From: Malacoraja senta | Taxonomy: Eukaryota | Length of the DNA stretch: 64,000 bases | Direction of reading: 5' to 3' | Assembly: GCA_038087875.1 (NCBI GenBank) | Contig: CM075989.1 | Location: 3,410,001 to 3,474,000 of the forward strand | In this document: positions 2,076-63,300 of the stretch, in pieces | Position numbering within the stretch: position 1 is the first letter of the stretch | How the letters are laid out: each line of letters starts with the position of its first letter | The notes under the pieces: generated by a model | Told to the model about the DNA's origin: nothing | The model's database searches: none | What the model saw: the letters and a program-made list of their open reading frames with translations, nothing else | Translations under genes and position numbers: made by a program

Positions 2076-5000
2076 TATCTTTTAAATGTTGTTATGGTAC
2101 ATGCCTCAACTACAGTAAACACTTGTTTTAACGGATCTCTGTATAATGGATTTTGGTTATAGTGGACGAACCAACCAACCTTCACCGCCAGGCTGAACTG
2201 CCGATGCCACCTCCCCGGTCGCTTCAAGGTCGTGTCTGTCCTGGACCGAGATTCTGAAGAAGGGTCACAACCCAAGACATCATCTATCCATGTTCTCTAG
2301 AGAAGCTGCCTGACCTGTTGAGCTGCTCCAGCATTGTGTGTCCTTTTGTGTATTGTGCATCTGCAATTGTTTGTTTCTCCTACAGTAAACCCTTGTTATA
2401 CCAGGAGGGGCGGGGGGAGGGGGGGGGATGGTGTCCGTTATTGCTGATTGTCTGCGAAAACAGAGTAAGGGATTATCATTGTATAAGTAATAGAACTGAA
2501 CAACTGCAGCATCGGAAAGCGTATACATGAGGCGTTGCCTCTAGATGATGACATTTACCATCAAGGGTCACCACCATCTGAGCCATGCCCTCTTCTCAGA
2601 GCTACCATTGAGCTGGTACAGGTCTGAAGTTCACATAAGTTCATATAACTGTGTAGGAAGGAACGGCACACGTTGGTTTACACTGAAGATAGACACAAAG
2701 TGCTGGTGCAACTCTGCGGGTCAGGCAGCATCTCTGGAGAAAATGGATGGGTGACGTTTTGGGTCAGGACCCTTCTTCAGACTGAAAGTAGAATGGACGG
2801 AACTGGAGGTAGGAAAATACCAGAACAAATTAGATTTGTTTGCCGGCAACAGATGACCAAGGAAGGGTGAAGCCCACAATGGCCTATTGTTAGTTGGGGA
2901 AGAGGTGATAATGACAGGGATGCAGAGGCAACGGAGAAAAGTTCTACGTCATGCTGGGCTGGGAACTCATTTTGGAGGGAGCAGAGGGGTAACAAGTCTG
3001 GGTTAAAACATGGGCATAGAGCAGTAGGAATCACAGAGAGGGAGCAGCGAGAGTTGGTCTCACAGAACTTCCGTCAGAGAGAGGAGAACATCATCAAAGT
3101 AGACATACCTTGAGAGTTGTGGAGCAGACAAAATGTGTCGGAAGTCAGATTCATGAACTGACCTGCACAACCATAATCCTACTTGGTAACAGAACACACC
3201 AGACCACCTCTTGCACTACAATGGACCTGTTTCCTACTGGGTATTTTTGTCGTCTTTTTTCTCTGCACTGTCTTGTATAATTTGTTTACAAATGTGTTTG
3301 TTTTGTCTGAGTCTATGTGCCTGCGATGCTGCGGGAGGCAAGATTTTCATGGTACCTGTACCTCACTATACTTGTACATATGGCAATAAACACAACATGA
3401 CGCCTTCATTTACCATCTTTACCTTCTTTGCTGCACCATTATCTCTTCAATCACTCAGCTTCATCTGCTGTCCATTCTACCAAAGACCTTTTGTATTTTT
3501 CCTTTCTCTTCCCCTTTATTCTACTTGTACTTGCTTAAATCAATTTTCAGTGTTGACAAAAGATACATTTTCTCCCCACAGGCAACTGCTGAGACTTGCT
3601 GAAATTTTTAAAGCAAGTGACAGTTTTCTTTCAGATCCACCATAGTTTCTTTAGGAAATATACCCTCAGAATATGAAAGAGTATATCCACATGGCCACTG
3701 AATGCTTCAGGGCAGGTGACAAATTTCATCAAAGGCAATCTAAATAAATGACATGCTTCAAAACAAATAAATAACTTACCTCAAATGTTTCCAAGGCTTC
3801 ACCAAAATCTAACCCTACGGTATAATTCACTGTCCTATTCTAATTTGGTCCTTTACTGACCGACAAATTTAAGTATAATAAAGTTAGCAGCTATATCTTC
3901 AATTACCAAGACCCAAACTCTAATTCCTTCCCACCTCTTTCCTTGAGCTATCTACACTCTTGGACTATCTTTGATCGGACTTTAACTTGTACTAAACGTT
4001 ATTCATGTTATTCCCTTTATCATCTATCTGTACACAGTGGATGGCTCGATTGTAATCATGGATTGATTTACCGCTAACTGGTTAGCACGCAACAAAAGCT
4101 TTTCCCTGCACCTCGGTTGGTACATATGATAAGAAACTAAACTCAAACTAAATTCAAATTCCATTTAAATGCCCCTGAAAACTTCCTTCGTTTACTGATT
4201 CTAATAAGAGCACAAAACGTAAGTAGCAGAAATGTGCCAAACAACTTGGAAGTTTTGCTAATCAAAGAGATCAGTACTTATCTAATTTTTGATCCCAACT
4301 TTATTCTCTTCGTATGATCTCAAAGATCAACTACTCAACATCATATGTCTCCGAGAGTTCAAACTTCCAAAGATTTACAACCTTCTAAGAGATGTATCCT
4401 AATTTCTGAAATCACCGACCCACCAATCCTCGCCTAATGGAAACATCCGCACAACATTTATGCAAGATAATTCCCTCAAAAGGACTACCTAGGTTAGTCA
4501 GTCAGAACTGTTTTCCCCAGAATGGAAATGTCCAACACTCGAGGACATAACTATAAAGTGAGAGAGGGACAGTTTAATGGAGATTTCATAATGAGTATAT
4601 GGAATGAGCTGCCAAAGGAGGTAGTTGAGGCAGGTACTTTCACAAAGTTTAACAGCCATTTGGGCAGGCGCATGTCTAGGATAGATTTAGAAGCATATGG
4701 CCAATTGCAGACTGGTGGGGCAAATGTTAGTTGGTGTGGGTAAAATGGGCTGAAGGGCCCCTTCCACATTGTATGACTCAAAGATTTTTACACAAAGAGT
4801 GATGGAGGCCTAGAACACATTGCCAAGGGTGGTGGTGGAGGAAGATACAATACTGGCATTTAAGAGGCTTTTAGACAGGCACATTGAAGTGCAGGAAATA
4901 AAGGAATAATGATTATGAACAGACAATGTGAACAGATCAGTTTAACTTGGGGCCTGGATCATAGCCGGCCAGCAAGTGGTGGTGGATGTGAGAGGAGTAA

Positions 5001-12521: not shown

Positions 12522-12779
12522 TCTGCTGGACAGGCAGCATCTCTGGCGAGAAGGAGTGACCTTTCGGGTCGAGTCAGACTCTCAGCCTGTTTCGAAGGGC
12601 CTGTTTCCGCGCTGTATCTCTCAACTAAACTAGATAAGTGATGGTCTTGGCATCATGTTCAGCACAGATAACATGGGCCGAAGGGCCTGTTCTTGTGCTA
12701 TACTGTTCTATGTTCTACTCAGCAGGTCGAACGGCACATGTGGGAAAAGAAGCTCAAGGTCTCTGCGGACGGTGCAAGA

Positions 12780-15170
12780 GCACTCCACAAAGCAGTCACT
12801 CTTCCTGCATTTTTTTTTTCCAGTGTAGAGTTGACCGCATTGTGAACAATGAATATTAGATTGGAGGAAGTGCAACTGAATCGATGCTGTGTCTGCTTTG
12901 GGTCACTGGAGGCAAGATGTTCAATTGTCATAGGTACCAATTACAGAACAATGAATTATTTCTCGAGCAACATAACAGCCCCGTAAACGCAATACACACA
13001 GATAAGATATAATAAACAAAAAAGATCAACAAATTAATAACTACAATATTAATGCAATAAAACCCATAGTCAATGCAACCAAAAGCAATCCATAGAAGTT
13101 CATAGTTGAGGTTAGTGTTGTGCAGTATTCAAAGCTTGATGGTTGTTCGGAAGAAGCTATTCTTGAACCTGAAGATATGAAATGATAGGTAATAAAAAGG
13201 AACTGCTGATGCAGGTTTATACCAAAGATAGACACATGCTGGAGTAACCCAGCGGGTCAGGCAGTATCTCTGGAGAAAACGGATAGGTGACGTTTCGGGT
13301 CTGAAGATGGGTCCCAGCCCGAAAAATCACATCCATTTTACCAGAGATACTGTCTGGTCCACTGAGTTATTCCATCATTTTGTGTCTAAGAAAGGATCGG
13401 TGTTTGCTTCTCCTGCAGTTACATGGGGAAATGCCGTAAGACAATGAGTTGGGGACAGAAAAACAGAACAGGGAGTGATGAAAGAAAGGATGCTGAAAGG
13501 GGAGGGGTAGATGTGACCTGTGATGTTATATTATTGAAGCTGGTGGATGATCTGATGAATATGGAGACCAGTGGGATGGAAGATGCGGACCAGAGCAATT
13601 CTATTCTTGCTCTTTCCAGATGGAAAGATTCTGAGAGCAGTGGTAAGGGAAATACATAAGGTGCAGTCAAGGGTTCTGTTCAGTATTGTAGAGGGGAAGT
13701 CGCAATTTGGGAGAAAAGAAGACATTTCAGAGGCGCAGGAAGCAGTAGCGCTGCAATCGTTGATGTATTGGAAAAAAGGTTGGGGCCCTGAGATTCTGAA
13801 TGTCCCACAAATAGATGAAGTTTGTCCACATGCAAAGTCCCATCACTATGTCTTTGGCTGGACAATGAAAAATTGTTCATTGGGAAATGGTTGGCTGGCT
13901 GTTCAAGGAAGAAGCGAATGGCCATCAAAGTCCGATGTGTGACGGAGGTGCAGTGGGATTGTGTATCCATGCTAAAAGTGAGTTGATTGGGGAAATGAAA
14001 TAGAAAACTGTCAAAATGTTGGAAGGTATCAGAAGATGGAGTAATGTGAGGAAGAAATAAGTTGGTGGGGAGAGAACGGGGTGAAGCAATGCATTTGCTC
14101 AGATAATCATTGTCAATCTGGGGCAGCGTTAATGTGAGCTGTGCAGGATGGGGTCGTTACAAAATTAGTGGCTGTGGAGGACAGTCCTCCTGAGGAGGAG
14201 ATCCATGACACTTTGTGAGAAAATGGCCTGGTATTTTGTGGTGGGATCATAGTATGAGGATATGTCTAAGTGGGTTGGTTCATCACAGCACATCAACACT
14301 ACCCTTATTGCATAATTTGACGATATCAGGATTAGTTTTTAATGAGTGGAGTGCTGCAATTTGAGAATGAGGTCAATTAGAATAAGTGACAGCAGTGGAA
14401 GAATCAAGGTGTTCAAGTCCTCGCAACAATTAACAGAGAATAGATTTAAAGAGAGGATAAGAGGTTGGATGGAGAAGTCAAATTCAACCAGAAATTATAA
14501 AGAGGGGAGAAAGTCTGGAATTAAAAACTCCTCGACAAAGAAATGGTCACAGAGACGATGGAAAAAAAATTCTAAGTTTTATTTGACTTAACAAATTTGT
14601 TAAGCTGAGGCCTCTGTTGAGGACTGATCCTTCAGACTGAGAGAGGGGAAGATCAGAAGAGATGGTGAAAACACAGCACAAAGTGGAACCGGAACTAGAA
14701 ATTGGGTTAGAGGAAAGTGAAGAGGGAGAGAGGTCGGGAGGGAATTGGCATACAAGACTCAATAGAGTTTGCGATCTTTGATATAAGAAAGAAAAGAAAG
14801 TTGCCTGTTCCAGCGCCAAATGTGGCAAAGAATAAAGTTAAACTGAATCACGTAGTTTTGAAATGAAGTTGCTGTAGAGAATGGTGGAGAGTAGGCTGTG
14901 GCTATTGGGATTTGCTTTTCTGGATAGCTTGAATATACCTGTGATCTCCAAATTGTGTCCATGTTCAAAATATTTCCCAATTGTGAGGGGTGGAATTTGA
15001 GTTGACCTATTGTGGGATGATTTGGAATTAGTGGGAGAGACATTCACCAAGGAAACAGGTATGGTTGTAGAACGGAGTTTTGGTCAGAATCTTACCACTA
15101 GGCATCAAGGGAAACAGGACCAAAAGTGACGAAAGCAAAAGGGAGAGAAATCCCACCAGAGATTTCTTCA
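12780..15170 (-). mobile_element. Old degenerate Penelope-like element (RT plus GIY-YIG remnants); also ~47850-50240
   Basis: Minus-strand fragments MDTQSHCTSVTH...AIRFFLEQPANHFP (PLE RT MDV.SLYT.I.H-like) and HRFSCTSSNLIF (compare RFTCTSSNLIYC at 33061); interrupted by younger inserts. Confidence 0.7.
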
Positions 15171-15257
15171 TTTCGAATGGAGCGGCTGGTCTTGTATACT
15201 CTGGAGTTTAGAAGGATTAGAGGGGATCTTATTGAAACATATAAGATTATTAAGGGT

Positions 15258-15355
15258 ACACAAAAATGCTGGAGAAACTCAGCGGGTGCAGCAGCATCTA
15301 TGGAGCGAAGGAAATAGGCAACGTTTCGGGCCGAAACCGTTCTTCAGACTCCTTC
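15258..15355 (-). mobile_element. 98 bp PLE-terminus mini-element inserted in a CR1 3' fragment (CR1 ~15172-15730)
   Basis: 14 bp TSD AGATTATTAAGGGT, perfect in copy 2 and with one mismatch in copy 1. Confidence 0.85.
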
Positions 15356-16745
15356 AGATTATTACGGGTTTGGACACACTATAGGCAGGAAACATGTTCC
15401 CGATGTTGGGGGAGTCCAGAACCAGGGGCCACAGTTTAAGAATAAGGGGTAGGCCATTTAGATTTAGGCCATGGAGACGAGGAAACACTTTTTCACACAG
15501 AGAGTTGTGGGTCTGTGGAATTCTCTGCCTCAGAGGGCAGTGGAGGCCGGTTCTCTGGATACTTTCTAGAGAGAGCGAGATAGGGCTCTTAAAGATAGTG
15601 GAGTCAGGGGATATGGGGAGAAGGCAGGAGCGGGGTACTGATTGGGGATGATCAGCAATGTTCACATTGAATGGCGGTGCTGGCTTGAAGTGCCGAATGG
15701 CCTACTCCTGCACCTATTGTCTGTTGTCTATTCAAGGTTGAACTTCACTGCCTCATCTCTTCCAAGCAAATGAAAATCAAAAAACTTCAGATGCTGGAAA
15801 TGAGAATAAAAACTAAAAGTGCTGGAAATATTTAGGTTTAATCCCTCTATTGGTGCAGGGTAATAGAAAAACAAGTTCGTTTTGGGTTGCTGAATGATAA
15901 AGGAGTGGCGAGATAAACAGAGGAAGTGTATGTTATAGGATGGGACCATGAATGCATGAGGGCATGTTGTGGAGGTCCCCTGGTCTTTCTACTATCATCC
16001 GTGCTTTGTCCCCTTCAACTCACTTGACTGGAGGACCTCTGCAACTGATTTAATTTATCCCTCGCCCAGTTTTCTCTACAGATTACATCCAACGTCTGAA
16101 GAATGGTCTTGACCCGAAACGTCACCCATTCCTTCTCTCCAGAGATGCTGCCTGTCCCGCTGATTTGCTCCAGCATTTTCGATTTACTTTCCCAGCTCAG
16201 GTGAAGGGTCTTCCAACCTAAATTATGAACTCTTTTGCTCTCTGTAGATGCTGTTGAGTGGTTTTGGCAATTTCTGTTTTCATTTCTTTCACCTTGTATG
16301 TGGCCTGACCTGAGCATTTGCACCATTCCGCCACTTCAGATATTCAGCATCAGCGGGTTATTGCTCTCGGTTTCCCTGGTCTTTTTCATCACTGCTGAGC
16401 AAGAATGTTTTCCAGGCCATGGAGACCTGTACTCTTGTAATGAGATTTTTATCACCTGCCTAAACCTGTTACGTGGTGCTTCAGGAAAAATGCCTTATTC
16501 AAAAAAATAACATCTCCGAAAATAATGCAATTTTCAGTCTATATAAAAGAAAATAAGCATAAACATCTGGTTTTCAGAGGCTGTGAAATCTGGTATTCAT
16601 GAGTGTGATAAGGTGTTCTGCAGATAGATGCTCACGGTTCACCCGCATGAGTTACAAATATTAATGGAAATTCAGTTCCATTTTTATCTCATGTGTGGAG
16701 TTTTATTTATGTTTGTGCTAACCTGTTCATATTTTCTGCTCCCAG

Positions 16746-16874: not shown

Positions 16875-17574
16875 GTAAATCCTTTCTTTACCAGCTCCAC
16901 CATTTTAAGGCAGTGATCTGTTGAGTGTAACCAATTGCCTAATTTTAATACAGATAGTGCAATTTCATTAGAGGCGATCAAGAAATTGTGACACTTGCAA
17001 AATTAACAAAACAGCTCTTTTTAAACAGGATCTTGATGAAGACCACATACAAAATGATTCGATCTTTCCTATGGAGCCATCCCCCATTTTATACAATGGC
17101 AGTCAAAGTGGCTCACAAGGTTTATAGATTGATTTTAGATTCATAGAATTATACCACACCAAAATAGGCCCTTTGGCCCAACTCCTCCATGTTGACCAAG
17201 GAGCCTTCCCATTTTCCTATATTCCTCTAAACCACTCCTATCTAGGAACCTATCCAAATGTTTTCAAATGTATTTATATCCGCCTCTACAACTTCTTCTG
17301 AAAGCTTGTTCTATCTACCCACCAACCTCTGTGTGACAAACCTTGCTCCTCGGGTCCCCTTTGAATCATTCCCCACTAAACCTACGCCTTCTCATTTTAG
17401 ATTCTCCTACTCGGGAGGGGGAGGGAGAGGGGTAACGGACCAACCATCTTATTAATGCCCTTCATGATTTTATAAACTCCAACAAGTCACCCCTCAGTCA
17501 CCTTCACTCCAGGGAAACCAGTCGCAGCTTATCTAATCCCTCCTCTTAACTCAATCAGCCAGTCCTGGCAACAT

Positions 17575-17740
17575 GTGTAAGAAAGAACTGCAGATGCTGG
17601 CAAAATCGAAGGTAGACACAAAATGCTGGAGTAACTCAGCGGGTGAGGCAGCATCTATGGAGAGAAGGAATGGGTGACGTTTCGGGTCGAGACCCTTCTT
17701 CAGACTGATGTCAGGGGCGGGGGCGGGGCAAGGATAGAGT
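17575..17740 (-). mobile_element. 166 bp PLE-terminus mini-element with a 13 bp TSD (also ~52631-52796)
   Basis: GTCCTGGCAACAT at 17562-17574 and 17741-17753; body homologous to the PLE terminus at 33470-33575. Confidence 0.9.
17676..17703 (-). ncRNA. Minimal type I hammerhead ribozyme motif (also 52732-52759)
   Basis: Reverse complement reads CUGAAGA-A-GGGU(CUCG)ACCC-GAAAC-GUC; core intact, stem III reduced to palindromic ACGU, stem I only ~2 bp; activity not shown. Confidence 0.7.
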
Positions 17741-17763
17741 GTCCTGGCAACATCCTTGTTCAC

Positions 17764-18905: not shown

Positions 18906-19641
18906 TTGTTAACCTTTCCTGCATCCTTTCTAACTCAATTCATATTGCTTTTGTAATCTGGTGACTACTGTGCTGCATACAATACTCCAGGTGTGGTCTC
19001 ATCATTGTCCTGTACAACTGTTACATGACATCCCAACTATTGCGTCATGCCCCATCTGATGAAGCCAAGCATGCCCTACACCATCACTGTTTTGTCAATA
19101 GTGTCGCCACCATTAGGGAACTATGTACTAGTACCCGTAAGTCTCTCTGTTCTTCAACACTGCCCTGGGCCTTGCCATTTACTGTACAAGTCCTATTCAG
19201 GTTTACCATCAGACAATGTATCACTTTGCACTGGGCTGGGTTAAATTCCATTTGCCATGTCCTTGCCCACTTTCCCAGGTGATCTAAATCCTGTGTAACC
19301 TCAGACAACCCTTTTCACTGTCCACCACATCACTAATTTGGTGTCATCTGCATTATCATCTAAATGGTTAAAATACAGTCAATTCTCGTTAATCCAACAC
19401 TTACTATTCCTGAATATTCGCTATCTCACACTAACTTGTGTGAGGCAGATCCTAAGGCAGCAAAAATATACCTGTTCAACCAACAATTCATATTCTGATA
19501 CCAACTCGTTTCTTCGAAAACCATACATTAATTTAGCCATACATTTCAATCGTTTGACTGACAGTCAGTGCACAAATAAACAATTCAGGCCACATGCCTC
19601 CAACTCTTCAGTTAACTCACAGCCAACCAAATGCATCTATG

Positions 19642-19810
19642 TGTAGGAAGGAACTGCAATTGCTGGTTTAAACCGAATATTGACTCAAAATGCTGGAGTA
19701 ATTCAGCGGGACAGGCAGCATCTCTGGATAGAAGGAAAGGGTGACTTCGGGTCGAGACCTTTCTTCAGACTGCCTGTCCCGCTGAGTTACTCCAGCATTT
19801 TGTGCCTTAT
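19642..19810. mobile_element. PLE-terminus mini-element with inverted arm
   Basis: TSD CAAATGCATCTATG / CAAAAGCATCTATG; internal inverted repeat of GCTGGAGTAA(C/T)TCAGCGGGACAGGCAG. Confidence 0.8.
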
Positions 19811-21097
19811 CAAAAGCATCTATGGTTGTTCACACCCCTAATGTAATTATAAGATCACAGCTGATTGGAAAATGTGAAGTGATGACTTTAATACAGTAAC
19901 TGTGTAATGGCAATGTCAAACTTTTCCAATGTCCAACTTACAGTTGGCATTACTACACAGGCAGGTAGGAGTGAACTTACGCAGACGATCAAAAAAACGG
20001 ATTCTCCAATTGTTCTTTCCTGTTTAATTCATTCTTTATTGAAGTAGTTGTACAAACAAAGACTTGATACATACCAGGTATTCCTTATTCTCTTACAAGA
20101 TGTAACTTTCCGTTCTCACTATCTCATCAGGTAAGAACTGTAGTCTCTATCAACGCCTGCTCTTCTGATCTGGCCACTCCCTCCCCTGGTATGATACATG
20201 TAACGTTCATCTACGTATCAAAAGCCCACCCCAAGCGTTCAAAATAATATTGCTAGAAATATCTAGACAAAATAATTTAATATGCTAACAGTAACTAGCC
20301 TAAGCATGAATGGCTTCAACAAACTGAATAGCAATTGTGACAATTACATTACATTGCATTTTAGCATTTTTGTAAATATAAAAGGAAATTAAATTGTCAT
20401 CTATTCATAAAAGTTCTCATTAGCAATTCTTACGTTTGTCCATGCATACTTTTGGACAAAAAAAGGAAAGAAATAGATTTATGATAAACTGATAATTCCA
20501 TATCCAATTTATATTTATCTTTCAATAAAGTGAAATTGTGCATTATATCTTGTGTACATATAACCTCTATTTTAAGCAACCATTAGTTTGTTTTATAAAC
20601 TATAAAATATGTCGAAATGATGCACAGAGGAAGATCATGTGATTCAGGAGCCCAACAAGCACGTGCAGGTAGACGGTGCTACTGCACAGAGGAGAGCTTT
20701 GTGTTTATACAAGAAGCAATAACTTAAAGTTTCCCAACTTTAATATATGCCTTCACTTCTCAAAGCTTTAGTGGGGGGGGGGGGTACTACAATCACTGAT
20801 CTACTCTCTAGGACTACTATGTAACAAAAAGCTTTTCACTGTAACTAGGTACACGTGACAATAATAAACTACACTAAACCTGTAACTTGATAACAAGGGC
20901 GAATCATGAATGCAGAAGTCAGTTCAGTGTCAAATGTGCAATCGTAGTGCGTTATTAATAATAACATTGGGCAGGAATATAAAGAACCAAATGGCCTTTG
21001 TCCATTTACAGATTTAAAGGGAAGGTGATTTAACATTTCAGGTAGTTTTACTTGTATTATTTATGTTGTAAAATTAATATTTTTGTGTTATTTATAG

Positions 21098-26819: not shown

Positions 26820-27095
26820 AGCGTAGACAGCATCCAGTGTTCTTGATGTGGCCTCCTGTACATCGGCGAGATCAAGTGTAGATTCGGCAACAGTTTTGCT
26901 CTGTCTGCCAAGGTTTACGGGAATTCCCAGTTGCTAATAATTTTACCTCCCCTTCCCATACTAAGCTTACTGTCCTGGTCCTCCTCCATTGCCAGAATGA
27001 GGTCACACGCAAACTGGAGGAAAAACACCTCATATTCTACTTGGGTAGCAAACAACCAAATGGTATGAACATTGAATTCTGAAACTTTAGGTAAC
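26820..27095 (+). mobile_element. PLE GIY-YIG endonuclease fragment (also ~62449-62724)
   Basis: IQCS*CGLLYIGEIKCRFG...RKLEEKHLIFYLG...GMNIEF, homologous to 33090-33370. Confidence 0.8.
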
Positions 27096-29413: not shown

Positions 29414-30769
29414 AGCCATAACTCGCTGCAAAGTTGAGGCTACTTTGAGTAACTATGCCAAGCTTAACCCTACAGAATCTATCTGTGTTGAGGAGCAGCA
29501 AGGAAATCTGAACCCAATCCAGAAATAAAAAGTAAAAAATGGACAGATGGGAAGGAATTAAACTCCACCGTAATGTGATATTTTGCAGTTATCTTAACTA
29601 TCCAATACAATTCTAAACATCTCTCAAAGCAATTAATTTAATTAGAACACCTTTTAAAAATGGGTTTTGTTTCGACCAGCAGTCATATTTTAGGTAAGTT
29701 CATGATGAATATTTCAAAATGACAATCGGCTTCATTGTACCAGGATGATCAGCTGAAAAACCTTGCTTCTATATCCTGTTATTTAATTGTTTTCCTGAAA
29801 TCATATCTGCTTGCAAATGCGTGCTAATCCTCAGATGCACATTTTCCACTCACACGTTTAATATTTGTTGCAAGGATTACACAAATGTAATATTCCAGCA
29901 AATTAATGTTGCTTATACTCAGTTTATAAAAAGCAGTCCATTTTTCCTCACCTCATTGTAATCTATTTTACTCATAAACTTGACCGATCCTGCTTAAAAA
30001 AACAATTTTAAAGTTGCTGTTGGTGATTGTAAAATAATTATGAAGTGCCACTAACCTGCGGAAGGTGGAAAAGTGGAGACCCAAGCCTTCTCTCCCCCAA
30101 CCCAACAATCAACCTCTCCTTACCTGGATCAACCTATCACTTATGCAGACACAAAATGCTGGAGTAACTCAGTGGGTCAGGCAGCATCTCTGAAGAAAAG
30201 GAATATGTGATGTTTCAGGTTGAGACCCTTCTTCAGACCTCTTCTTCAGACTTTGGTGCATCTGCGGTTCCTTCCCACGCAGTTCTGAAGTCTCCCATTC
30301 CTTCTCTCCAGAGATGCTGCCTCCCGCATTTTGTGTCTATGTTTGGTGTAAACAAGCATCTGCAGTTCCTTCCTACATATCCACATATCATTTTTGAGCT
30401 CTTGCCTCACCCTTTCCCCTCATCTTTTTTTTTACCAAATATCTCCCCTCTACTCTGACCTGAAATATCATCTGTCCATTCCTCTACAAATGCTATTTGC
30501 CCCCTTGAGTTATTCCAGCACTTTGGTTTTTTTGTGCATAGAACAATGGATCCTGGATGTGCCCCTGCTGGTTCTCACTTAAATAGAGACATCGTTTTGC
30601 AGGGACACAGACATTGAAAGCAACGCTGTTGTGCATTGTTCATGAATTTTGAAATAGCATCATTACAATCTTGCATGTTAGAGAACAGCTTCAATAGGTG
30701 GTGCTATTGCCCCAAAAACTTGAAGTAGTAGTGAAGAAAAGAACATTAGACAAAGTAGGGATATTGATT

Positions 30770-30981
30770 GTGGAGGAAAGAACGGCAGATGATGGTTTAA
30801 ATTCAAGATAGGCACAAAATGCTGGAGTCACTCAGCGGGGCAGGCAACATCTCTGGAGAGAAGGAATGGGTGATGTTTCAGGTCAAGAAAAGAAGAAGGG
30901 TCTCGACCGGAAACGTCACCCATTCCTTCTCTCGTGAGATGCGGCCTGTCGGCTGAGTTACTCCAGCATTTTGTGTCTATC
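30770..30981. mobile_element. PLE-terminus mini-element, inverted pair
   Basis: TSD TAGGGATATTGATT / TAGGGATATATTGATT; two opposed ~80 bp arms. Confidence 0.8.
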
Positions 30982-32075
30982 TAGGGATATATTGATTCAC
31001 ATGCAGCCACACGTGTTTTTGCAAATTTCACATCTGTGTTAAATATCATGGTACAATAATTTTGTTCATTTCACCAGCCCGTAGAAAGCATTCAGCCCCC
31101 AATGTTTAGCAGACGATCTGTTATTTAGGAGTCAACCAGGTTGCTATGGATGTGTTCATGTGTAGAGTTGATGTACAAACCTGCCAGATTTTGAAATATT
31201 GCGATGTTCAGCTTGGGCAGCTTATAACCCAGCAGTATGAATATTGAAATATCAAGCTTTAGGTAACAACCCACACCCCCGCGCCTTCTCCTCCCCTGCC
31301 CACCCCTTCCCTGTGTCCCACCAGACATGCAACCATTTCTCCCACTGTCCTGTCCTTTTCTTCCTTTCTCTTCCCCTCCCCCATCTTCTCCCACCTATAT
31401 CCCTTCCTCTGCACATTTCACTCCTCTCCTTATCTTACATCGTTTTGTCTCGTTTTCCACCCATCTGCCGATCAAATCCTCCTCGTCTGTATCCACCTAT
31501 CACTTGCCGGGCGTTGTCCCACCCCCACCTCTTTTCTAGCTTTCTCCCCCCCCCTCCCCCCACTACATTCATTCTGTATAAGTGTCTTGACCGGAAAAGT
31601 CAGATATTCAAGTACCCTAGAGATGCTGCCTGGCCCGCTGAGTTACTCCAACATTTGTGTTTAGAAAAAAAAAATATTGATCAATTTCTCCCATGAAAGG
31701 GGAAGACTTTAAAGATTTGTGTTTTATGCTTATTTTAATACTGCACTGAATGTCCCCTGAGTGTTCACCAGTCTGATACAGGCTCGTTCACCACTGAGAT
31801 CCAGACAGAAACATACATAATTTATATGGGGAGGTCCAAGGACCAACTTTTTCTTGGCTTGGGAGGAAAATTAAGGAAGTAGTTTTGTGTGAGAAATGAG
31901 TAAGGTGCACTAATTAAATTATGACCCATAACTACTTACACTTTATATTTATTAGCTGAGTAGTTAGTCACAAAACCTTGCTGACTTTGGCCCATTTTAT
32001 CACGTGCTTCTAAGTACTTGGAAACCTCATCCTTAATATTGGACTCTAAAATCTTACCAACCACTGAAGTCAGGC

Positions 32076-32275
32076 NNNNNNNNNNNNNNNNNNNNNNNNN
32101 NNNNNNNNNNNNNNNNNNNNNNNNNNNNNNNNNNNNNNNNNNNNNNNNNNNNNNNNNNNNNNNNNNNNNNNNNNNNNNNNNNNNNNNNNNNNNNNNNNNN
32201 NNNNNNNNNNNNNNNNNNNNNNNNNNNNNNNNNNNNNNNNNNNNNNNNNNNNNNNNNNNNNNNNNNNNNNNNNNN
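32076..32275. other. Assembly gap (200 N)
   Basis: Exactly 200 Ns, a round number typical of an unsized scaffold join. Confidence 0.99.
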
Positions 32276-32614
32276 GTAGAGGCCTCAGGCTATCCGAGTA
32301 AATGATCTGCAATAGGCTGTGTACCACTAGAATAAATAGTTAGGAAAGCTCACAATTTAATTCAAGCAGGTGTGAGTTGTTGCACATTGGCAGGTCAAAG
32401 ACAAAGGGAATTATGCATTTAATGGCAGAACCTTTATCAGCATTGATTTACAGAGAGATCTTGGGGTCCAAGTCCGTAGCTCCCTGAAAGTAGCAACACA
32501 AGTGGATAGAGTGGTAAAGAAGACATATGGTATTAGCTGGAGCCTTTACTATGAGAGTCAGGAAGTCATGTTGCAGCTTTATAAAATATTGGCTTGAATA
32601 CATTCGGAGTATAG

Positions 32615-33575
32615 AGATCCCCTATAAACCCACTGACTCCCATGGCTATCTGGACTACACTTCTTCCCACCCTGCTACCTGTAAGGACTTCATCCCCTAC
32701 TCCCAATTCCTCCGTCTACGCCGCATCTGCACCCAGGATGAGGTGTTCCACACCAGGGCATCGGAGATGTCTTCATTCTTCAGGGAACGGGGATTCCCCT
32801 CTTCTACCCGGCTCTCACCAGGGTCTCTTCTATACCCCGTGACTCTACTCTCACTCCCCATCCTCCCACTCGTAACAAGGGCAGAGTCCCCCTTGTCCTC
32901 ACCTTCCACCCTACTAGCCGTCACGTACAACAAATAATCCTCCATCATTTTCACCACCTCCAACGTGACCCCACCACTTGCCACGCCAATGCTACACGTG
33001 TCGCTTTACCTCCCCCCTTGACTCCATTCAAGGACCCAAGCAGTCTTTCCAGGTGCGGCAGAGGTTCACCTGCACCTCCTCCAACCTCATCTATTGCATC
33101 CGCTGCTCTAGATGTCAGCTGTTCTACATCGGTGAGACCAAGCATAGGCTTGGCGATCGCTTCGCCGAACACCTCCCCTCGCAATAACCAACCTGATCTC
33201 CCGGTGGCTCAGCACTTCAACTCCCCCTCCCATTCCGAATCTGACCTTTCTGTCCTGGGAATCCTCCATGGCCAGAGTGAGGACCACCGTAAATTGGAGG
33301 AGCAGCACCTCATATTTCGCTTGGGCAGTTTGCACCCCAGCGATATGAACATTGAATTCTCTAATTTTAGGATGTCCTTACTTTCTCCTCCCCTTCTCAG
33401 CTCTCCCTCAGCCCACTGGCTCCACCTCTTCCTTTCTTCTTCCCGCCCCCCCCCCCCCCCCACCCCCCACCCTCACATCAGTCTGAAGAAGGGTTTCAGC
33501 CCAAAACGTTGCCTATTTCCTTCGCTCCATAGATGCTGCCTCACTCGCTGAGTTTCTCCAGCATTTTTGTCTATC
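32615..33575 (+). mobile_element. Penelope-like element 3' part: RT C-terminus, GIY-YIG endonuclease, terminal repeat with degenerate hammerhead motif
   Basis: YKPTDSHGYLDYTSSHP...IPYSQFLRLRRIC; FTCTSSNLIYCIRCSRCQLFYIGETKHRLGDRFAEHL; PVAQHFN...RKLEEQHLIFRLGSLHPSDMNIEF; then CTGAAGAAGGGTTTCAGCCCAAAACGTTG at ~33483. Confidence 0.93.
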
Positions 33576-34532
33576 GTCAAATTCAATAATACGGGATTGG
33601 CTCTTTCGGACAAAGATTAAAAGAAATTTCTTGACCAAGATGGTACCAAATGTCTTGAAATTTCTATCCAGCATAGTTGGGGGAGGGGGGCTCAGTCACC
33701 ATTGAACTCAGAGATCAATAGATTTATAGATACGAGCAGTCCATGAGCTACATAAGGATTTTGTTACTGAAAACTGTCCGTAAGCAAACCACTGAAACCT
33801 CAATTTTCTACAGCTACCTATATCATATCACTCCACATACACTTGCCATTATCCTTTCATTTCAGTGAAAACCACCCATAATTAAATTAGTGAGTTATAT
33901 ACCCTATCCAGTCACTAATGAATACGAAGAAACATTTGATTATTATTTAGCTAAAAAAATGTTTTAAAAATGTATTGGAGACTTTGTGCGCAGCAAGTCA
34001 GGTCATAAGTACCCTGGCAGACCTTGTATTAAGGAAATCAAGGGTTTGTGTAAGAAAGTAGCACTGAAGTTAAAAATAATTCAGCCATGATCGTGTGAAA
34101 TGGTGGAGCAGGTACGCTGGGTTAAATGGCCCGCATCTGCTTCTATTTCTAATGTTTATATGGAAAGTTTCGAATTGTATCTCTGGCAGGAATTACAGTG
34201 TCTAAATAGCACAGCAACTGAGACCACATTATAACTATAACAGTTAAGGTACTGTGAAAGGACAAATGGGGTGGGATTGGGCTGTGTTTGTTGATCTGTG
34301 TCTTTCGGAGGTGCATGATTTTGTAATTGTTATAAGAGCATTCTGAAGAAGGAAAAAAACGCTTGAGTGCCTGCAACAGTAAACACCACATTAAACAGAG
34401 ATTCTGTATATAAGGAGCAGATGAATCTTTGCTGTATTTGATGCTCTGAAATAAAGTCTTGATGCTCTGCCCAATCTTTGTGGTGTGTTTTAAAGTTTTT
34501 TTAAACAATACAAATCAGGACAAGACACAGAC

Positions 34533-51930: not shown

Positions 51931-52819
51931 GTAAATCCTTTCTTTACCAGCTCCACCATTTTAAGGCAGTGATCTGATGAGTGTAACCAATTGCCTAATT
52001 TTAATACAGATAGTGCAATTTCATTAGAGGCGATCAAGAAATTGTGACACTTGCAAAATTAACAAAACAGCTCTTTTTAAACAGGATCTTGATGAAGACC
52101 ACATACAAAATGATTCGATCTTTCCTATGGAGCCATCCCCCATTTTATACAATGGCAGTCAAAGTGGCTTACAAGGTTTAGAGATTGATTTTAGATTCAT
52201 AGAATTATACCACACCAAAATAGGCCCTTTGGCCCAACTCCTCCATGTTGACCAAGGAGCCTTCCCATTTTCCTATATTCCTCTAAACCACTCCTATCTA
52301 GGAACCTATCCAAATGTTTTAAAATGTATTTATATCCGCCTCTACAACTTCTTCTGAAAGCTTGTTCTATCTACCCACCAACCTCTGTGTGACAAACCTT
52401 GCTCCTCGGGTCCCCTTTGAATCAATCCCCACTAAACCTACGCCTTCTCATTTTAGATTCTCCTACTCGGGAGGGGGAGGGAGAGGGGTAACGGACCAAC
52501 CATCTTATTAATACCCTTCATGATTTTATAAACTCCAACAAGTCACCCCTCAGTCACCTTCACTCCAGGGAAACCAGTCGCAGCTTATCTAATCCCTCCT
52601 CTTAACTCAATCAGCCAGTCCTGGCAACATGTGTAAGAAAGAACTGCAGATGCTGGCAAAATCGAAGGTAGACACAAAATGCTGGAGTAACTCAGCGGGT
52701 GAGGCAGCATCTATGGAGAGAAGGAATGGGTGACGTTTCGGGTCGAGACCCTTCTTCAGACTGATGTCAGGGGAGGGGGCGGGGCAAGGATAGAGTGTCC
52801 TGGCAACATCCTTGTTAAC

Positions 52820-60321: not shown

Positions 60322-63300
60322 GTAAACCAATGCTTCCCCCCCCACGTACATATTTAACTCATTTTTACAATTAATGGTCGCAACCTTTCATTGCTGCATC
60401 TGAGAAACTGTGCTTTTGACTTTTTTTATCACATCCGCTAGTCCTTAAGTCCAAGATTCACTAAACTGTCTTCAGAGACATGATGACACTGTAATTTAAA
60501 ATATTGTCCTATTAGCTGAAGACTCCTTTCAATATAAACAGATATGACAGATTTGCATTCTGCTGGTTGTATGGGTTCAACGTTAAATTAGTTTTGGCAG
60601 CGTCCGTTTAATTAATAGTAATTGGAAAGGAATAGGAAAAGATCATAAGAAATAGGAGCAGAATTAGGCAATTCGACCCATCAAGTCTACTCCATCATTC
60701 AATCATGGCTGATCTATCTTTCCCTCTCAACCCCATTCTCCTGCCTTCTCCCCATAACCCCTGGCACCCGTACTAATCAAAAATCCTGATTGCAAATTTA
60801 GAAAGGCCACAAAGAGGACTGTGTGGATTTCCACCCGGTGGCAGCCCTGTGACCGTGTGGATTTCCTCCTGGTGCTCCGGTTTCCTCCCACATCCCAAAG
60901 GAACAGCTTTGGGAAGTCCGATTCACCTCTACCCCATTGTGGACGTTGGACTTTGTCAATGGAACTGATGGGCTACAATGCTGAGAACTATATTCGCCAC
61001 TCTTCCACTTTATCTATTGTACTTGAGTTTGACTTGATTGTATTTATCTATGGTATTATCCAATCTGTTTGGATATCATGCAAAACAAAACTTTCCACTG
61101 TACACTTGACAATAATGTGGCACCTAAACCGAAAGATTTGCCGGTTTATAGGTTAATTTGCCTCTGCAACATTTTTTTTTTAAAATTCCAGTGTGTAGGG
61201 AGTTTATGACAAAATGGAATAACATACAACTAGTGCTAACGGGTGATCGATGATTGGCAGTGGACTGTAGGGTATGTTTCCCTGCTGTATCACTAAACTA
61301 AACTATATCAAAATGTGGTGCTAGCGACATACAGATTGCTGTATGATTTTTTATTTCTGGTTCTGCTTCATTGATATTGTAGTCCCCTGGGAGTTCTTGA
61401 TTGAATGTTGTCGAGGGAGTTACTGTGGATTGAACACATTCCCAGCCTCACCGAGAAGCACTCGATGCTGGGCCTGGCTCCAATCTGAGAATTAATGTCC
61501 CTTGCCCTGAAGTACATGTAAATTCATCAATAACATTTGCCCTTTCCCCAGCGAGATTCTGTATATATTCTACACAATATCCTCTTCAGACTGACAAACA
61601 ATAATCTCCATCCAGTTTCCTGATTGATGGCAGGTTAGATCTCAACAATAATTAGTGGTATCTGCCAGCATATCCATGCATTGTACATTTGTATCATTGG
61701 TTTTGTCCAGAGGGAAATATTAAACTATTGATTAGAAACATTGCTAATGTTTTCACTTCTGTGTTTAAGAAGCAGAAAACCTGAGAGTCGCACAATTTAT
61801 CATATTTGTTTGCAAAGCATGATATGCCAAATCTGTTTTCTGGGTCCTGTTTGATGGAGCTGATGTTAATATAATAATCTAAGCAAAATTTTTGAGAATG
61901 TGGAGCTGAACTGCAGATATTAGGATGAGGGGTAGGCAGTGTAAAACGTTGGGTAGCCCGAGTGCCAACATCCGAAGATCGGGATGTAGAAACTAGGAAC
62001 TGCAGGTGCTGCTTTACCAAGGAAAGACACAAAACGCTGGAGTAACTCAACGGGTCAGGCAGCATCTTGATGGTGCTGAGCTACCATCAACCTCTTTGGA
62101 GACCCTCTGACCATCTTTAATTGGATTTTACTGGAGTTTTATCTTGCACTAAATATTATTCCCTTTGTCTTATATCTGTACACTGTAGACGGCTCGATTG
62201 AAATCATGTACGGTCTCTCCGCTGACTAGTTAGCACACAACAAAAAGCTTTTCACTGCACCGCTACACGTGATAATAAACTAAACAAAATATTCCTGGAG
62301 AATATGGATAGGTGACGTTTCGGGAAAGGACCCATCTTTAGACTGATTGCAGGCATGGGGGGGGGGGGTGGGGGAAACAGAGCTAGAAGAGTGGAGGGGC
62401 AGAACAAAGCATGGCGGATCATTAGTGAATACCAGTGAGGGGAAGCCAAGCGTAGACTGCATCCAGTGTTCTTGATGTGGCCTCCTGTACATCGGCGAGA
62501 TCAAGTGTAGATTCGGCAACAGTTTTGCTCTGTCTGCCAAGGCTTACGGGAACTCCCAGTTGCTAATAATTTTACCTCCCCTTCCCATACTAAGCTTACT
62601 GTCCTGGTCCTCCTCCATTGCCAGAATGAGGTCACACGCAAACTGGAGGAAAAACACCTCATATTCTACTTGGGTAACAAACAACCAAATGGTATGAACA
62701 TTGAATTCTGAAACTTTAGGTAACCTCTACAGCTCCACCCCCCTCCCCTCCTCCCCAGAACCCTGGATAACTGCATCTATCACTACCCTCCGGTCCCACT
62801 AAACAATTTGCAACTCATCAATCCTCTAGCTTCACAATCGCAACTCTCTTGCCTCACACCTTGCGTGCGTTCATCCCTGGCCTTTGTAAACCCCCTTTGC
62901 CTTTGTGGCCTGCTTTCCTTTGTCCTGCCCCTACACTCTTCTAGCCTTCTTTCCCCCTACCCCTGCAATCGGTCTGAACAAGGATCCCTACCCATGTCAC
63001 CTGTCCATGTTCTCCACGGATGCTGCCATTAAGGGTTTGGACACGCTAGAGGCAGGAAACATGTTCCCAATGTTGGGGGAGTCCAGAACCAGGGGCCACA
63101 GTTTAAGAATAAAAGGTAAGCAATTTAGAACGGAGATGAGGAAACAATTTTTCTCACAGAGTTGTGGATCTGTGGAATTCACTGCCTCAGAGGGTAGTGG
63201 AGGCTGGTTATCTGGATACTTTCAAGAGAGAGCTCGATAGGGCTCTTGAAGATAGCGGGGTCAGGGGATATGGGGAGAAGGCAGGAACGGGGTACTGATT

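Follow-up and report, generated by a model that had tools for sequence, protein, structure and literature searches.

The short hammerhead-bearing repeat that recurs through the window (the whole 64-kb stretch analyzed, G000:C13:3410001-3474000, in a genome of 1.94 Gb) is the pseudo-LTR (pLTR) of an autonomous Penelope-like element (PLE), inserted alone. We consider it fairly probable that such solo pLTRs arise when priming by the reverse transcriptase (RT) takes place within the 5' repeat of the parental RNA and synthesis ends at the predicted capped start of that RNA.

A newly built profile of the repeat gave 63 matches in the window, 35 of them in the first duplicated unit, and 0 in reversed control DNA. 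All 20 positions listed in the preliminary description coincided with these matches, and the core it had given, CUGAAGA-A-GGGU(CUCG)ACCC-GAAAC-GUC, was located on the minus strand at 17703-17676; the strict core pattern was present in only 7 of the 63 matches. The positions below are counted backwards from the end of the tail (0), so that the usual 5' boundary is an A at -132 and the predicted hammerhead cut follows -102.

The focal copy lies on the minus strand between two 13-bp TSDs (17562-17574 and 17741-17753) that are exact repeats of each other (13/13). Its PLE tail (17575-17611) is an optional 3' extension of ~38 nt, the end of which would correspond to the distal RT start site, given the two modes of 3' ends. 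The pLTR core (17612-17706), whose sequence is found at both ends of the full-length copy L279, runs from the usual 5' boundary (the A at 17706), as placed by the boundary statistics, to the proximal 3' end. It contains a predicted minimal type I hammerhead motif (17674-17705) with C3 at 17703, a 4-bp stem II (17695-17684), a palindromic ACGU stem III and a 2-bp stem I, in line with the ~2 bp predicted earlier; the predicted cut falls between 17676 and 17675. An initiator-like hexamer (17704-17709, minus strand, predicted +1 at 17706) is preserved at the ends of several 3' UTR types that are unrelated to each other, which is compatible with a role in initiation; its AG also looks like a splice acceptor. 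The focal copy passed the usual boundary and continues for 34 nt into the pyrimidine-rich end of the PLE 3' UTR (17707-17740, minus strand), which aligns to long ORF-bearing copies.

TSDs of 13-14 bp had been reported at four units of the window, and all four hold, with sizes of about 8-16 bp genome-wide. Two of the flanked units proved to be head-to-head pairs of two copies rather than single ones. The unit at 15258-15355 (minus strand) is a solo pLTR without tail that starts at the boundary, preceded by 5 extra letters of which the last is G, with a 14-bp TSD (15244-15257 and 15356-15369, 13/14). In the pair at 19642-19810, a tailed arm (19642-19771, minus) faces a short tail-less arm (about 19770-19810, plus), again within a 14-bp TSD (19628-19641 and 19811-19824, 13/14). 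The pair at 30770-30981 consists of a tailed arm (30770-30887, minus) and a tail-less arm (30892-30981, plus), and its 14-bp TSD carries a 2-bp indel (30756-30769 and 30982-30997).

The window also holds a longer, 5'-truncated copy of the same PLE (~1 kb, 32614-33581, plus strand), in which remnants of the RT thumb/linker and GIY-YIG (32614-33371) are followed by the 3' UTR and a pLTR (33480-33581), as seen by tblastn with residues 218-511 of the protein P0001, the profile match and blastn to long copies. Further decayed RT/EN fragments, 41-58% identical to P0001, lie at 12753-14015 (minus), 26823-27091 (plus) and 62439-62720 (plus). A ~35-kb direct duplication (1-28372 versus 35948-64000, 97-99% identity) adjoins an assembly gap (N run, 32076-32275) and may reflect either a segmental duplication or the tandem placement of two haplotypes. 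The second-unit counterpart of the focal element (52631-52796, minus strand; 99.4% identical, flanks shared) belongs to this duplication and is not an independent insertion.

The best genomic matches of the repeat extend upstream into endonuclease and RT coding sequence. At locus L019, an open frame of 511 aa (P0001) stops ~105 nt upstream of the core. It has a YIDD motif with a weak RVT_1 match (E 0.001, below cut-off), matches GIY-YIG atlas clusters at 0.96, has two Cys between GIY and YIG (in keeping with the CCHH of EN+ PLEs) and a C-X4-C-X2-C linker between RT and EN. GIY-YIG was not reported by a Pfam scan of P0001, and a PDB sequence search gave no match. According to the accessible part of PMC8557442, a CX2-5CxxC zinc-finger linker between RT and EN marks the Neptune/Nematis clades; the parent element fits this criterion, its putative clade being read from the linker.

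Walking upstream to the 5' end revealed that pLTR and tail pass directly into the leader and ATG, unbroken in L181-L210, so that the tail in full-length elements continues into the 5' body. The full-length copy L279 comprises a pLTR (380-513), the body with a broken ORF, the UTR and a second pLTR (3990-4091), flanked by a 14-bp TSD; its ORF, counted from the ATG to the stop codon, measures about 1,084 codons and is interrupted by frameshifts. Flanking pLTRs on both sides of the ORF were also found in L278, L285 and L290. The autonomous element is 3.7 kb long and presents the features of EN+ PLEs: a single ORF with RT and C-terminal GIY-YIG, flanking pLTRs, an optional 30-40-bp tail that is the start of the body, an inverted truncated copy placed head-to-head and TSDs of variable length. 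This agrees with the PLE RT/GIY-YIG source proposed before. From the first core codon to the ATG 165 nt later, the pLTR is stop-free and in frame (L188, L210, L204, L186, L189); in one cluster the repeat is 2 nt shorter, which puts it out of phase with the ATG of the ORF.

The catalytic core was correctly recognized as that of a type I hammerhead: by its sequence, the motif is predicted to be a minimal hammerhead of the PLE kind, with the core CUGANGA/GAAA/NUH. Like the metazoan PLE hammerheads described in the available part of PMC4209133, it has no loop III, a palindromic 15.2-16.2, an extra base after A9 and G10.1-C11.1. The 4-bp helix II and 2-bp helix I compare with 7-8 and 4-5 bp in Schistosoma, and a 2-bp helix I is that of D. 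virilis (same portion of PMC4209133). An Rfam scan, one of the checks suggested earlier, returned no match at the gathering score; the predicted active fold is not the minimum (-4.8 vs -8.3 kcal/mol) and folding z-scores were near zero. As to covariation of stem II, another such check, the stem changes were one-sided, from U-A to U-G only (stem II 31/261, stem I 32/261, linked to one cluster), with no double change among the common types. One segment of the pLTR can pair alternately with two similar repeats (model positions 53-58 and 79-84, plus the tail), one before each 3' end; this pairing, modelled and without covariation support, might set the two RT start sites.

The core was kept in five of the six cluster majorities while neighboring sites varied, and a small decayed cluster showed CpG-type loss. 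Among inserted copies the core was intact in 53 of 261. G12, which lies in a CpG, was changed in 67/245 copies versus 115/560 at other CpG sites, and non-CpG change was 5.7% in the core versus 8.8% outside, the latter comparison being confounded by subfamily variation outside the core. Selection on inserted hammerheads was rejected: G12 mutates like any CpG. The inserted hammerheads decay, and it is probably in source elements alone that the hammerhead is of importance. We have also examined a possible crossover at the cut site between clusters; the patterns fit an intermediate lineage.

The abundance of the repeat was estimated from 120 evenly spaced 10-kb regions of contigs C1-C9, small contigs lying outside the sample. 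These regions contained 501 profile matches (0 in reversed DNA), which corresponds, when extrapolated, to about 0.81 million fragments (0.69-0.94 million by bootstrap) and 3.9% of bases; the pLTRs inserted alone were estimated at several hundred thousand. TSDs scoring at least 8 flanked 18 of 91 insertions genome-wide, compared with 0.9 in shuffled pairings, supporting the earlier proposal that the copies are independent insertions. We have fitted a six-cluster mixture model to 29 variable sites, a coarse partition for which BIC preferred 3-4 clusters. Copies continuing into the UTR amounted to 16/88, 13/47, 16/40, 14/45, 2/13 and 5/28 per cluster; no short-only cluster was found in this model, short and long copies being present in each. 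Together with the identity of the repeat as the pLTR of an autonomous element, this spoke against the dedicated SINE-like family put forward before, and a separate retrozyme or SINE family was not supported.

The 3' ends of the copies fell into two modes, near -38 and at 0, ~38 nt apart, which delimit the known PLE tail. None of the 204 matches that reached the tail end continued into the leader. The 5' ends were analyzed in 448 copies with a 3' end, of which 284 reached the boundary and 261 could be classified. The chance of ending per 10 nt was 0.7-4.9% from -33 to -102 and rose to 9% and 15% in the next two bins (448 copies). The sequence beyond the boundary was unique flank in 127 of the classified copies, an inverted arm in 68 and pyrimidine-rich UTR in 66; as 4 of the 127 also share UTR, 191/261 (about 73%) stop at the boundary. 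These 5' ends cluster at -132 +/- 3, directly before the hammerhead. The recurrent element ends that had been suggested as a check do exist, as two 3' sites and one sharp 5' boundary, and the fallback of ordinary random PLE truncation does not account for a pile-up within a few nucleotides. No start peak occurred at the hammerhead cleavage site (3, 2 and 2 of 448 at model positions 31-33). About 30 loci reached the ORF end and 8 the RT motif (tblastn with P0001 alone); for each copy that reaches the ORF there are roughly ten solo pLTRs with the fixed 5' edge.

Several UTR types of 90-340 nt precede the boundary, and their common part is only a pyrimidine tract and a final CAGT. This CA+1GT presumably fits the initiator consensus. 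The 5' pLTRs of several ORF-start copies (L194, L199, L200, L201, L207) likewise begin at the boundary, and this sharp 5' point likely marks the start of the element's RNA.

Among 29,340 young exact matches, about half stop at -132/-133, and the base preceding the boundary was C in 22,605, G in 2,673, A in 2,151 and T in 1,911. Most stops were preceded by C and spread over -135 to -129. The first 4.8 Mb of C1 supplied 60 C-type loci, of which 39 go on into the UTR and 21 stop, 18 of the latter matching the UTR end by at most 3 letters. The share of G among non-C bases was 39.7% against 27.6% expected, a modest excess; a stricter sample test gave only 7/13 (p=0.03). A copied cap is known from LINE-1 work to leave an added G. 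Inspection of 30 G loci showed the G inside a TSD of at least 8 bp in 3 and at inverted junctions in 15, and microhomology accounts for some of these cases.

We have also searched four raw-read RNA runs (poly(A) and single-cell) labelled 'organism C', whose identity with the window's species is unproven. About 0.3-0.45% of reads matched the pLTR, giving heavy coverage of both strands. In these non-cap libraries, no site was found where many molecules begin. Read ends at GUC or circular RNA had been suggested as a further check: the read ends formed no peaks, and none of the joints listed (535 more lie beyond those) was that of a unit-length circle. The best-supported joint in the bulk runs (1452->1414 on L188, about 1,000 reads per run) is the junction of a 66-nt tandem unit that derives from the pLTR 3' of the core, without CUGANGA, and recurs at L028:3364-3688 (five copies) and L145:6075-6207.

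Adjacent copies were predominantly inverted: 88 of 110 pairs were head-to-head, 5 tail-to-tail and 17 on the same strand. A TSD scoring at least 8 enclosed 24 of 71 testable pairs versus 0.6 in shuffles. The tail was present on one arm in 65 of the 88 head-to-head pairs, on both in 5 and on neither in 18, differing from the expected 43, 16 and 29 (p about 2e-6).

The first 300 nt of the 5' body had four matches in the random sample; each of them is truncated and abuts a pLTR, directly at the boundary in two cases and through the terminal 60-75 nt of the UTR in the other two. In a set of 30 loci selected for the 5' body, two duplicate pairs among them, 5 were joined at the boundary (L183, L194, L201, L204, L207), most with a few extra letters, the chance of such a joint being about 0.2% per breakpoint. 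Post-insertion deletion is disfavored as their source, since it would not favor the boundary. Of the other loci in the set, L189 has its joint at -78 and L195 has it at the ORF end; L208 arose by insertion into another copy. Two independent pLTR joints, one with a TSD, lie at nearly the same body position (L290:1977-2103 and L283:2010), a possible preferred target inside the element.

One head-to-head locus, L211:1383-1870 (G000:C4:79.90 Mb), has both arms joining a GT donor-like site of the leader (+36) exactly to the AG before the hammerhead, and resembles a retrocopy of an RNA from which the whole ORF was spliced out, leaving a 164-166-nt exon that holds the ribozyme. Being splice-precise on both arms, it suggests that the AG may at times act as an acceptor; microhomology could give the same joint. 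Genome-wide, this leader-to-pLTR junction was found at L211 only (3 other matches with 2 mismatches were unrelated), so that splicing was rejected as the main route, and no loose end at the splice donor was seen among the 24 entries listed of 118. Excision of the 3' UTR as an intron from the stop codon was rejected as well: none of 30 fetched matches (of 31) was an ORF-end junction, most being another UTR type.

The ends observed here can be compared with the biochemistry of Poseidon_Ac (PAc) of Anolis (PMC11167929), a Poseidon-clade element other than the parent element. PAc RT, a predicted dimer, has two adjacent internal start sites, which delimit the tail, and depends on about 55 nt of RNA located past these sites; it extends both target strands and uses uncleaved RNA, and the hammerhead cuts only with the protein. 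Both the two tail-delimiting ends and the use of both strands are alike in our element. PAc starts lie 111-118 nt after the beginning of stem II, compared with 121 nt for the tail end here, and neither system has reads or copies starting at the cut site. Unlike PAc, whose ORF starts at stem II, our element has its first ATG 38 nt past the tail, with the pLTR frame open and in phase; a fixed 5' boundary of solo copies is absent from the main text of PMC11167929.

In the strong-stop-like mechanism that we favor, transcription would start at the initiator-like A(-132). Because the sequence past the tail, the presumed protein binding site, exists only after the 5' pLTR, priming would occur there and yield a 95- or 132-nt run-off cDNA, which would integrate alone as a solo pLTR. 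If the two target strands used the two start sites, a head-to-head pair with one long and one short arm would form. A jump of the RT to another RNA end would create the body-pLTR joints, copying of the cap would add the G at the boundary, and the formation of ORF-bearing copies would require such a jump, or else a template in tandem or circular form. Retroviral minus-strand strong-stop DNA is likewise primed near the RNA 5' end and runs off at the cap, terminal redundancy then allowing transfer. The likeness is one of analogy only: here, nicked target DNA would serve as primer and the short product would be integrated, with no tRNA primer and no integrase.

Long copies that pass the boundary could derive from tandem read-through, from a hammerhead-made circle, as proposed for PLEs in the accessible part of PMC4209133, or from transfer before the cap. 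Long copies had no cap scar at -133 (G in 13/100 vs 8/100 at a neighboring C, p=0.36), which leaves a jump after cap copying unsupported as their route. In D. virilis, a 75-bp intron ends at helix I and the Penelope transcript starts 46 bp ahead of this intron (PMC2377424 and PMC4209133, available parts), well upstream of the matching point, and this counts against a start at -132. We put forward more tentatively, and with some doubt, the stricter version in which priming is at the 5' pLTR without exception, the two start sites are used by one dimer on the two target strands, ORF-bearing copies form only when the template is switched or the hammerhead supplies an end or a circle, and the genome is a fossil record of PLE strong-stop DNA.

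Other origins of the boundary were weighed against the same data. Solo pLTRs with an internal promoter might copy themselves as a SINE-like, PLE-dependent family, in keeping with a start at an initiator-like site within the unit, the very high copy number and the share of pLTR reads (about 0.3-0.45%) in the four RNA runs. We judge this unlikely, as UTR-continuing copies occurred in all six clusters (coarse as the clustering is), only 53/261 copies have an intact core, and solos lack the sequence downstream of the tail (0/204) that the characterized PLE protein needs; some self-copying of solo pLTRs may nonetheless take place. To a similar degree improbable is a stall of the RT on a longer RNA, at a C-rich UTR, a bound protein or a splice-acceptor/branch region, with biased 5' truncations primed at the 3' pLTR. 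Here, a pyrimidine tract and CAG at the end of every UTR type, somewhat raised ending rates in the UTR (about 70 copies enter it and about 30 loci reach the ORF end) and the one splice-precise locus stand against a boundary common to widely differing UTR sequences, the added G and one-arm tail that a stall leaves unexplained, and the 0/30 candidate loci with spliced ORF-end junctions. A branch-point stall in particular was rejected, the stops peaking at -132/-133 whereas the branch-like A lies at -135 to -138.

If the template were an antisense RNA, the boundary would be its 3' end and the inverted pairs would come from self-priming. RNA reads on both strands and loose A-box- and B-box-like words on the opposite strand are compatible with it, but the B-box-like word corresponds to stem II in reverse and differs from cluster to cluster, and extra junction letters lie mostly at the hammerhead end. 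An antisense template has been proposed for PLE head-to-head structures (PMC3846280, in the portion available); the two tail-delimiting ends, however, equal the RT starts on sense RNA in vitro (PMC11167929), and we find this origin very unlikely. The poorest prospects belong to the retrozyme-like reading of the preliminary description, a true non-LTR retrozyme whose tandem hammerhead units form circles that re-insert. The core does have a palindromic stem III, a few pLTR-spacer-pLTR direct dimers exist (L286, L287, L289), and retrozymes derive from pLTRs (bioRxiv 10.64898/2026.07.22.740005, accessible part). The neighbors, nevertheless, are head-to-head (88 of 110 pairs, against 17 on the same strand) and not tandem, the ends are neither at the cleavage site nor circularly permuted, and the repeat is the pLTR of an autonomous element. 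No head-to-tail arrays of hammerhead units were found by TRF in 120 loci or among the 110 adjacent pairs, TRF reporting only three 2-copy arrays with pLTR words (periods 35, 38 and 66). For the bulk of the copies, this reading is largely refuted.

The three direct dimers, of pLTR-250-nt body-pLTR layout with a ~380-nt period, are separate and differ in their extra junction letters; the layout is retrozyme-like, and the common length may stem from the length bias of the query. As far as the available parts of PMC7229834 and bioRxiv 10.64898/2026.07.22.740005 describe them, animal non-LTR retrozymes resemble our copies in being short, non-coding and pLTR-related, with a type I hammerhead and TSDs >4 bp; they form head-to-tail arrays with a hammerhead per unit, whereas the copies here are monomers or head-to-head pairs identical to the parent pLTR. 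EN+ PLEs of the Neptune/Nematis type (PMC8557442, accessible part) share the RT followed by C-terminal GIY-YIG, the CX4CxxC linker, the hammerhead in the pLTR, the 30-40-bp tail on one end, the inverted truncated copy and partial tandems. The ~10:1 excess of fixed-5'-edge solo pLTRs over ORF-reaching copies differs from what that part reports. Dispersed single minimal hammerheads from truncated PLEs, mostly single motifs plus opposite-strand pairs as here, have been described (PMC4209133, in the sections available).

Hammerhead-bearing PLE ends scattered through animal genomes are thus already known, and the element itself is an ordinary PLE. The family may already be listed in Repbase-type entries or in the supplements of PMC4209133, PMC11167929 or bioRxiv 10.64898/2026.07.22.740005. 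The fixed boundary, the one-arm tail statistic and the model were not found in the literature searched, in which subscription papers and Repbase were thinly covered; the boundary and the one-arm statistic offer a useful mechanistic lead. For annotators, such copies mimic a SINE or retrozyme family unless mapped to their parent. The ~0.8 million fragments provide statistics that bear on the route from internal priming to a full PLE insertion and on the purpose of the hammerhead; the boundary, the added G, the one-arm tail and the body-to-pLTR joints are each testable in the published PAc system. If the stricter version holds true, the PLE hammerhead would have a required role, and it would show how direct pLTR dimers, including the splice-precise L211, could seed retrozymes.
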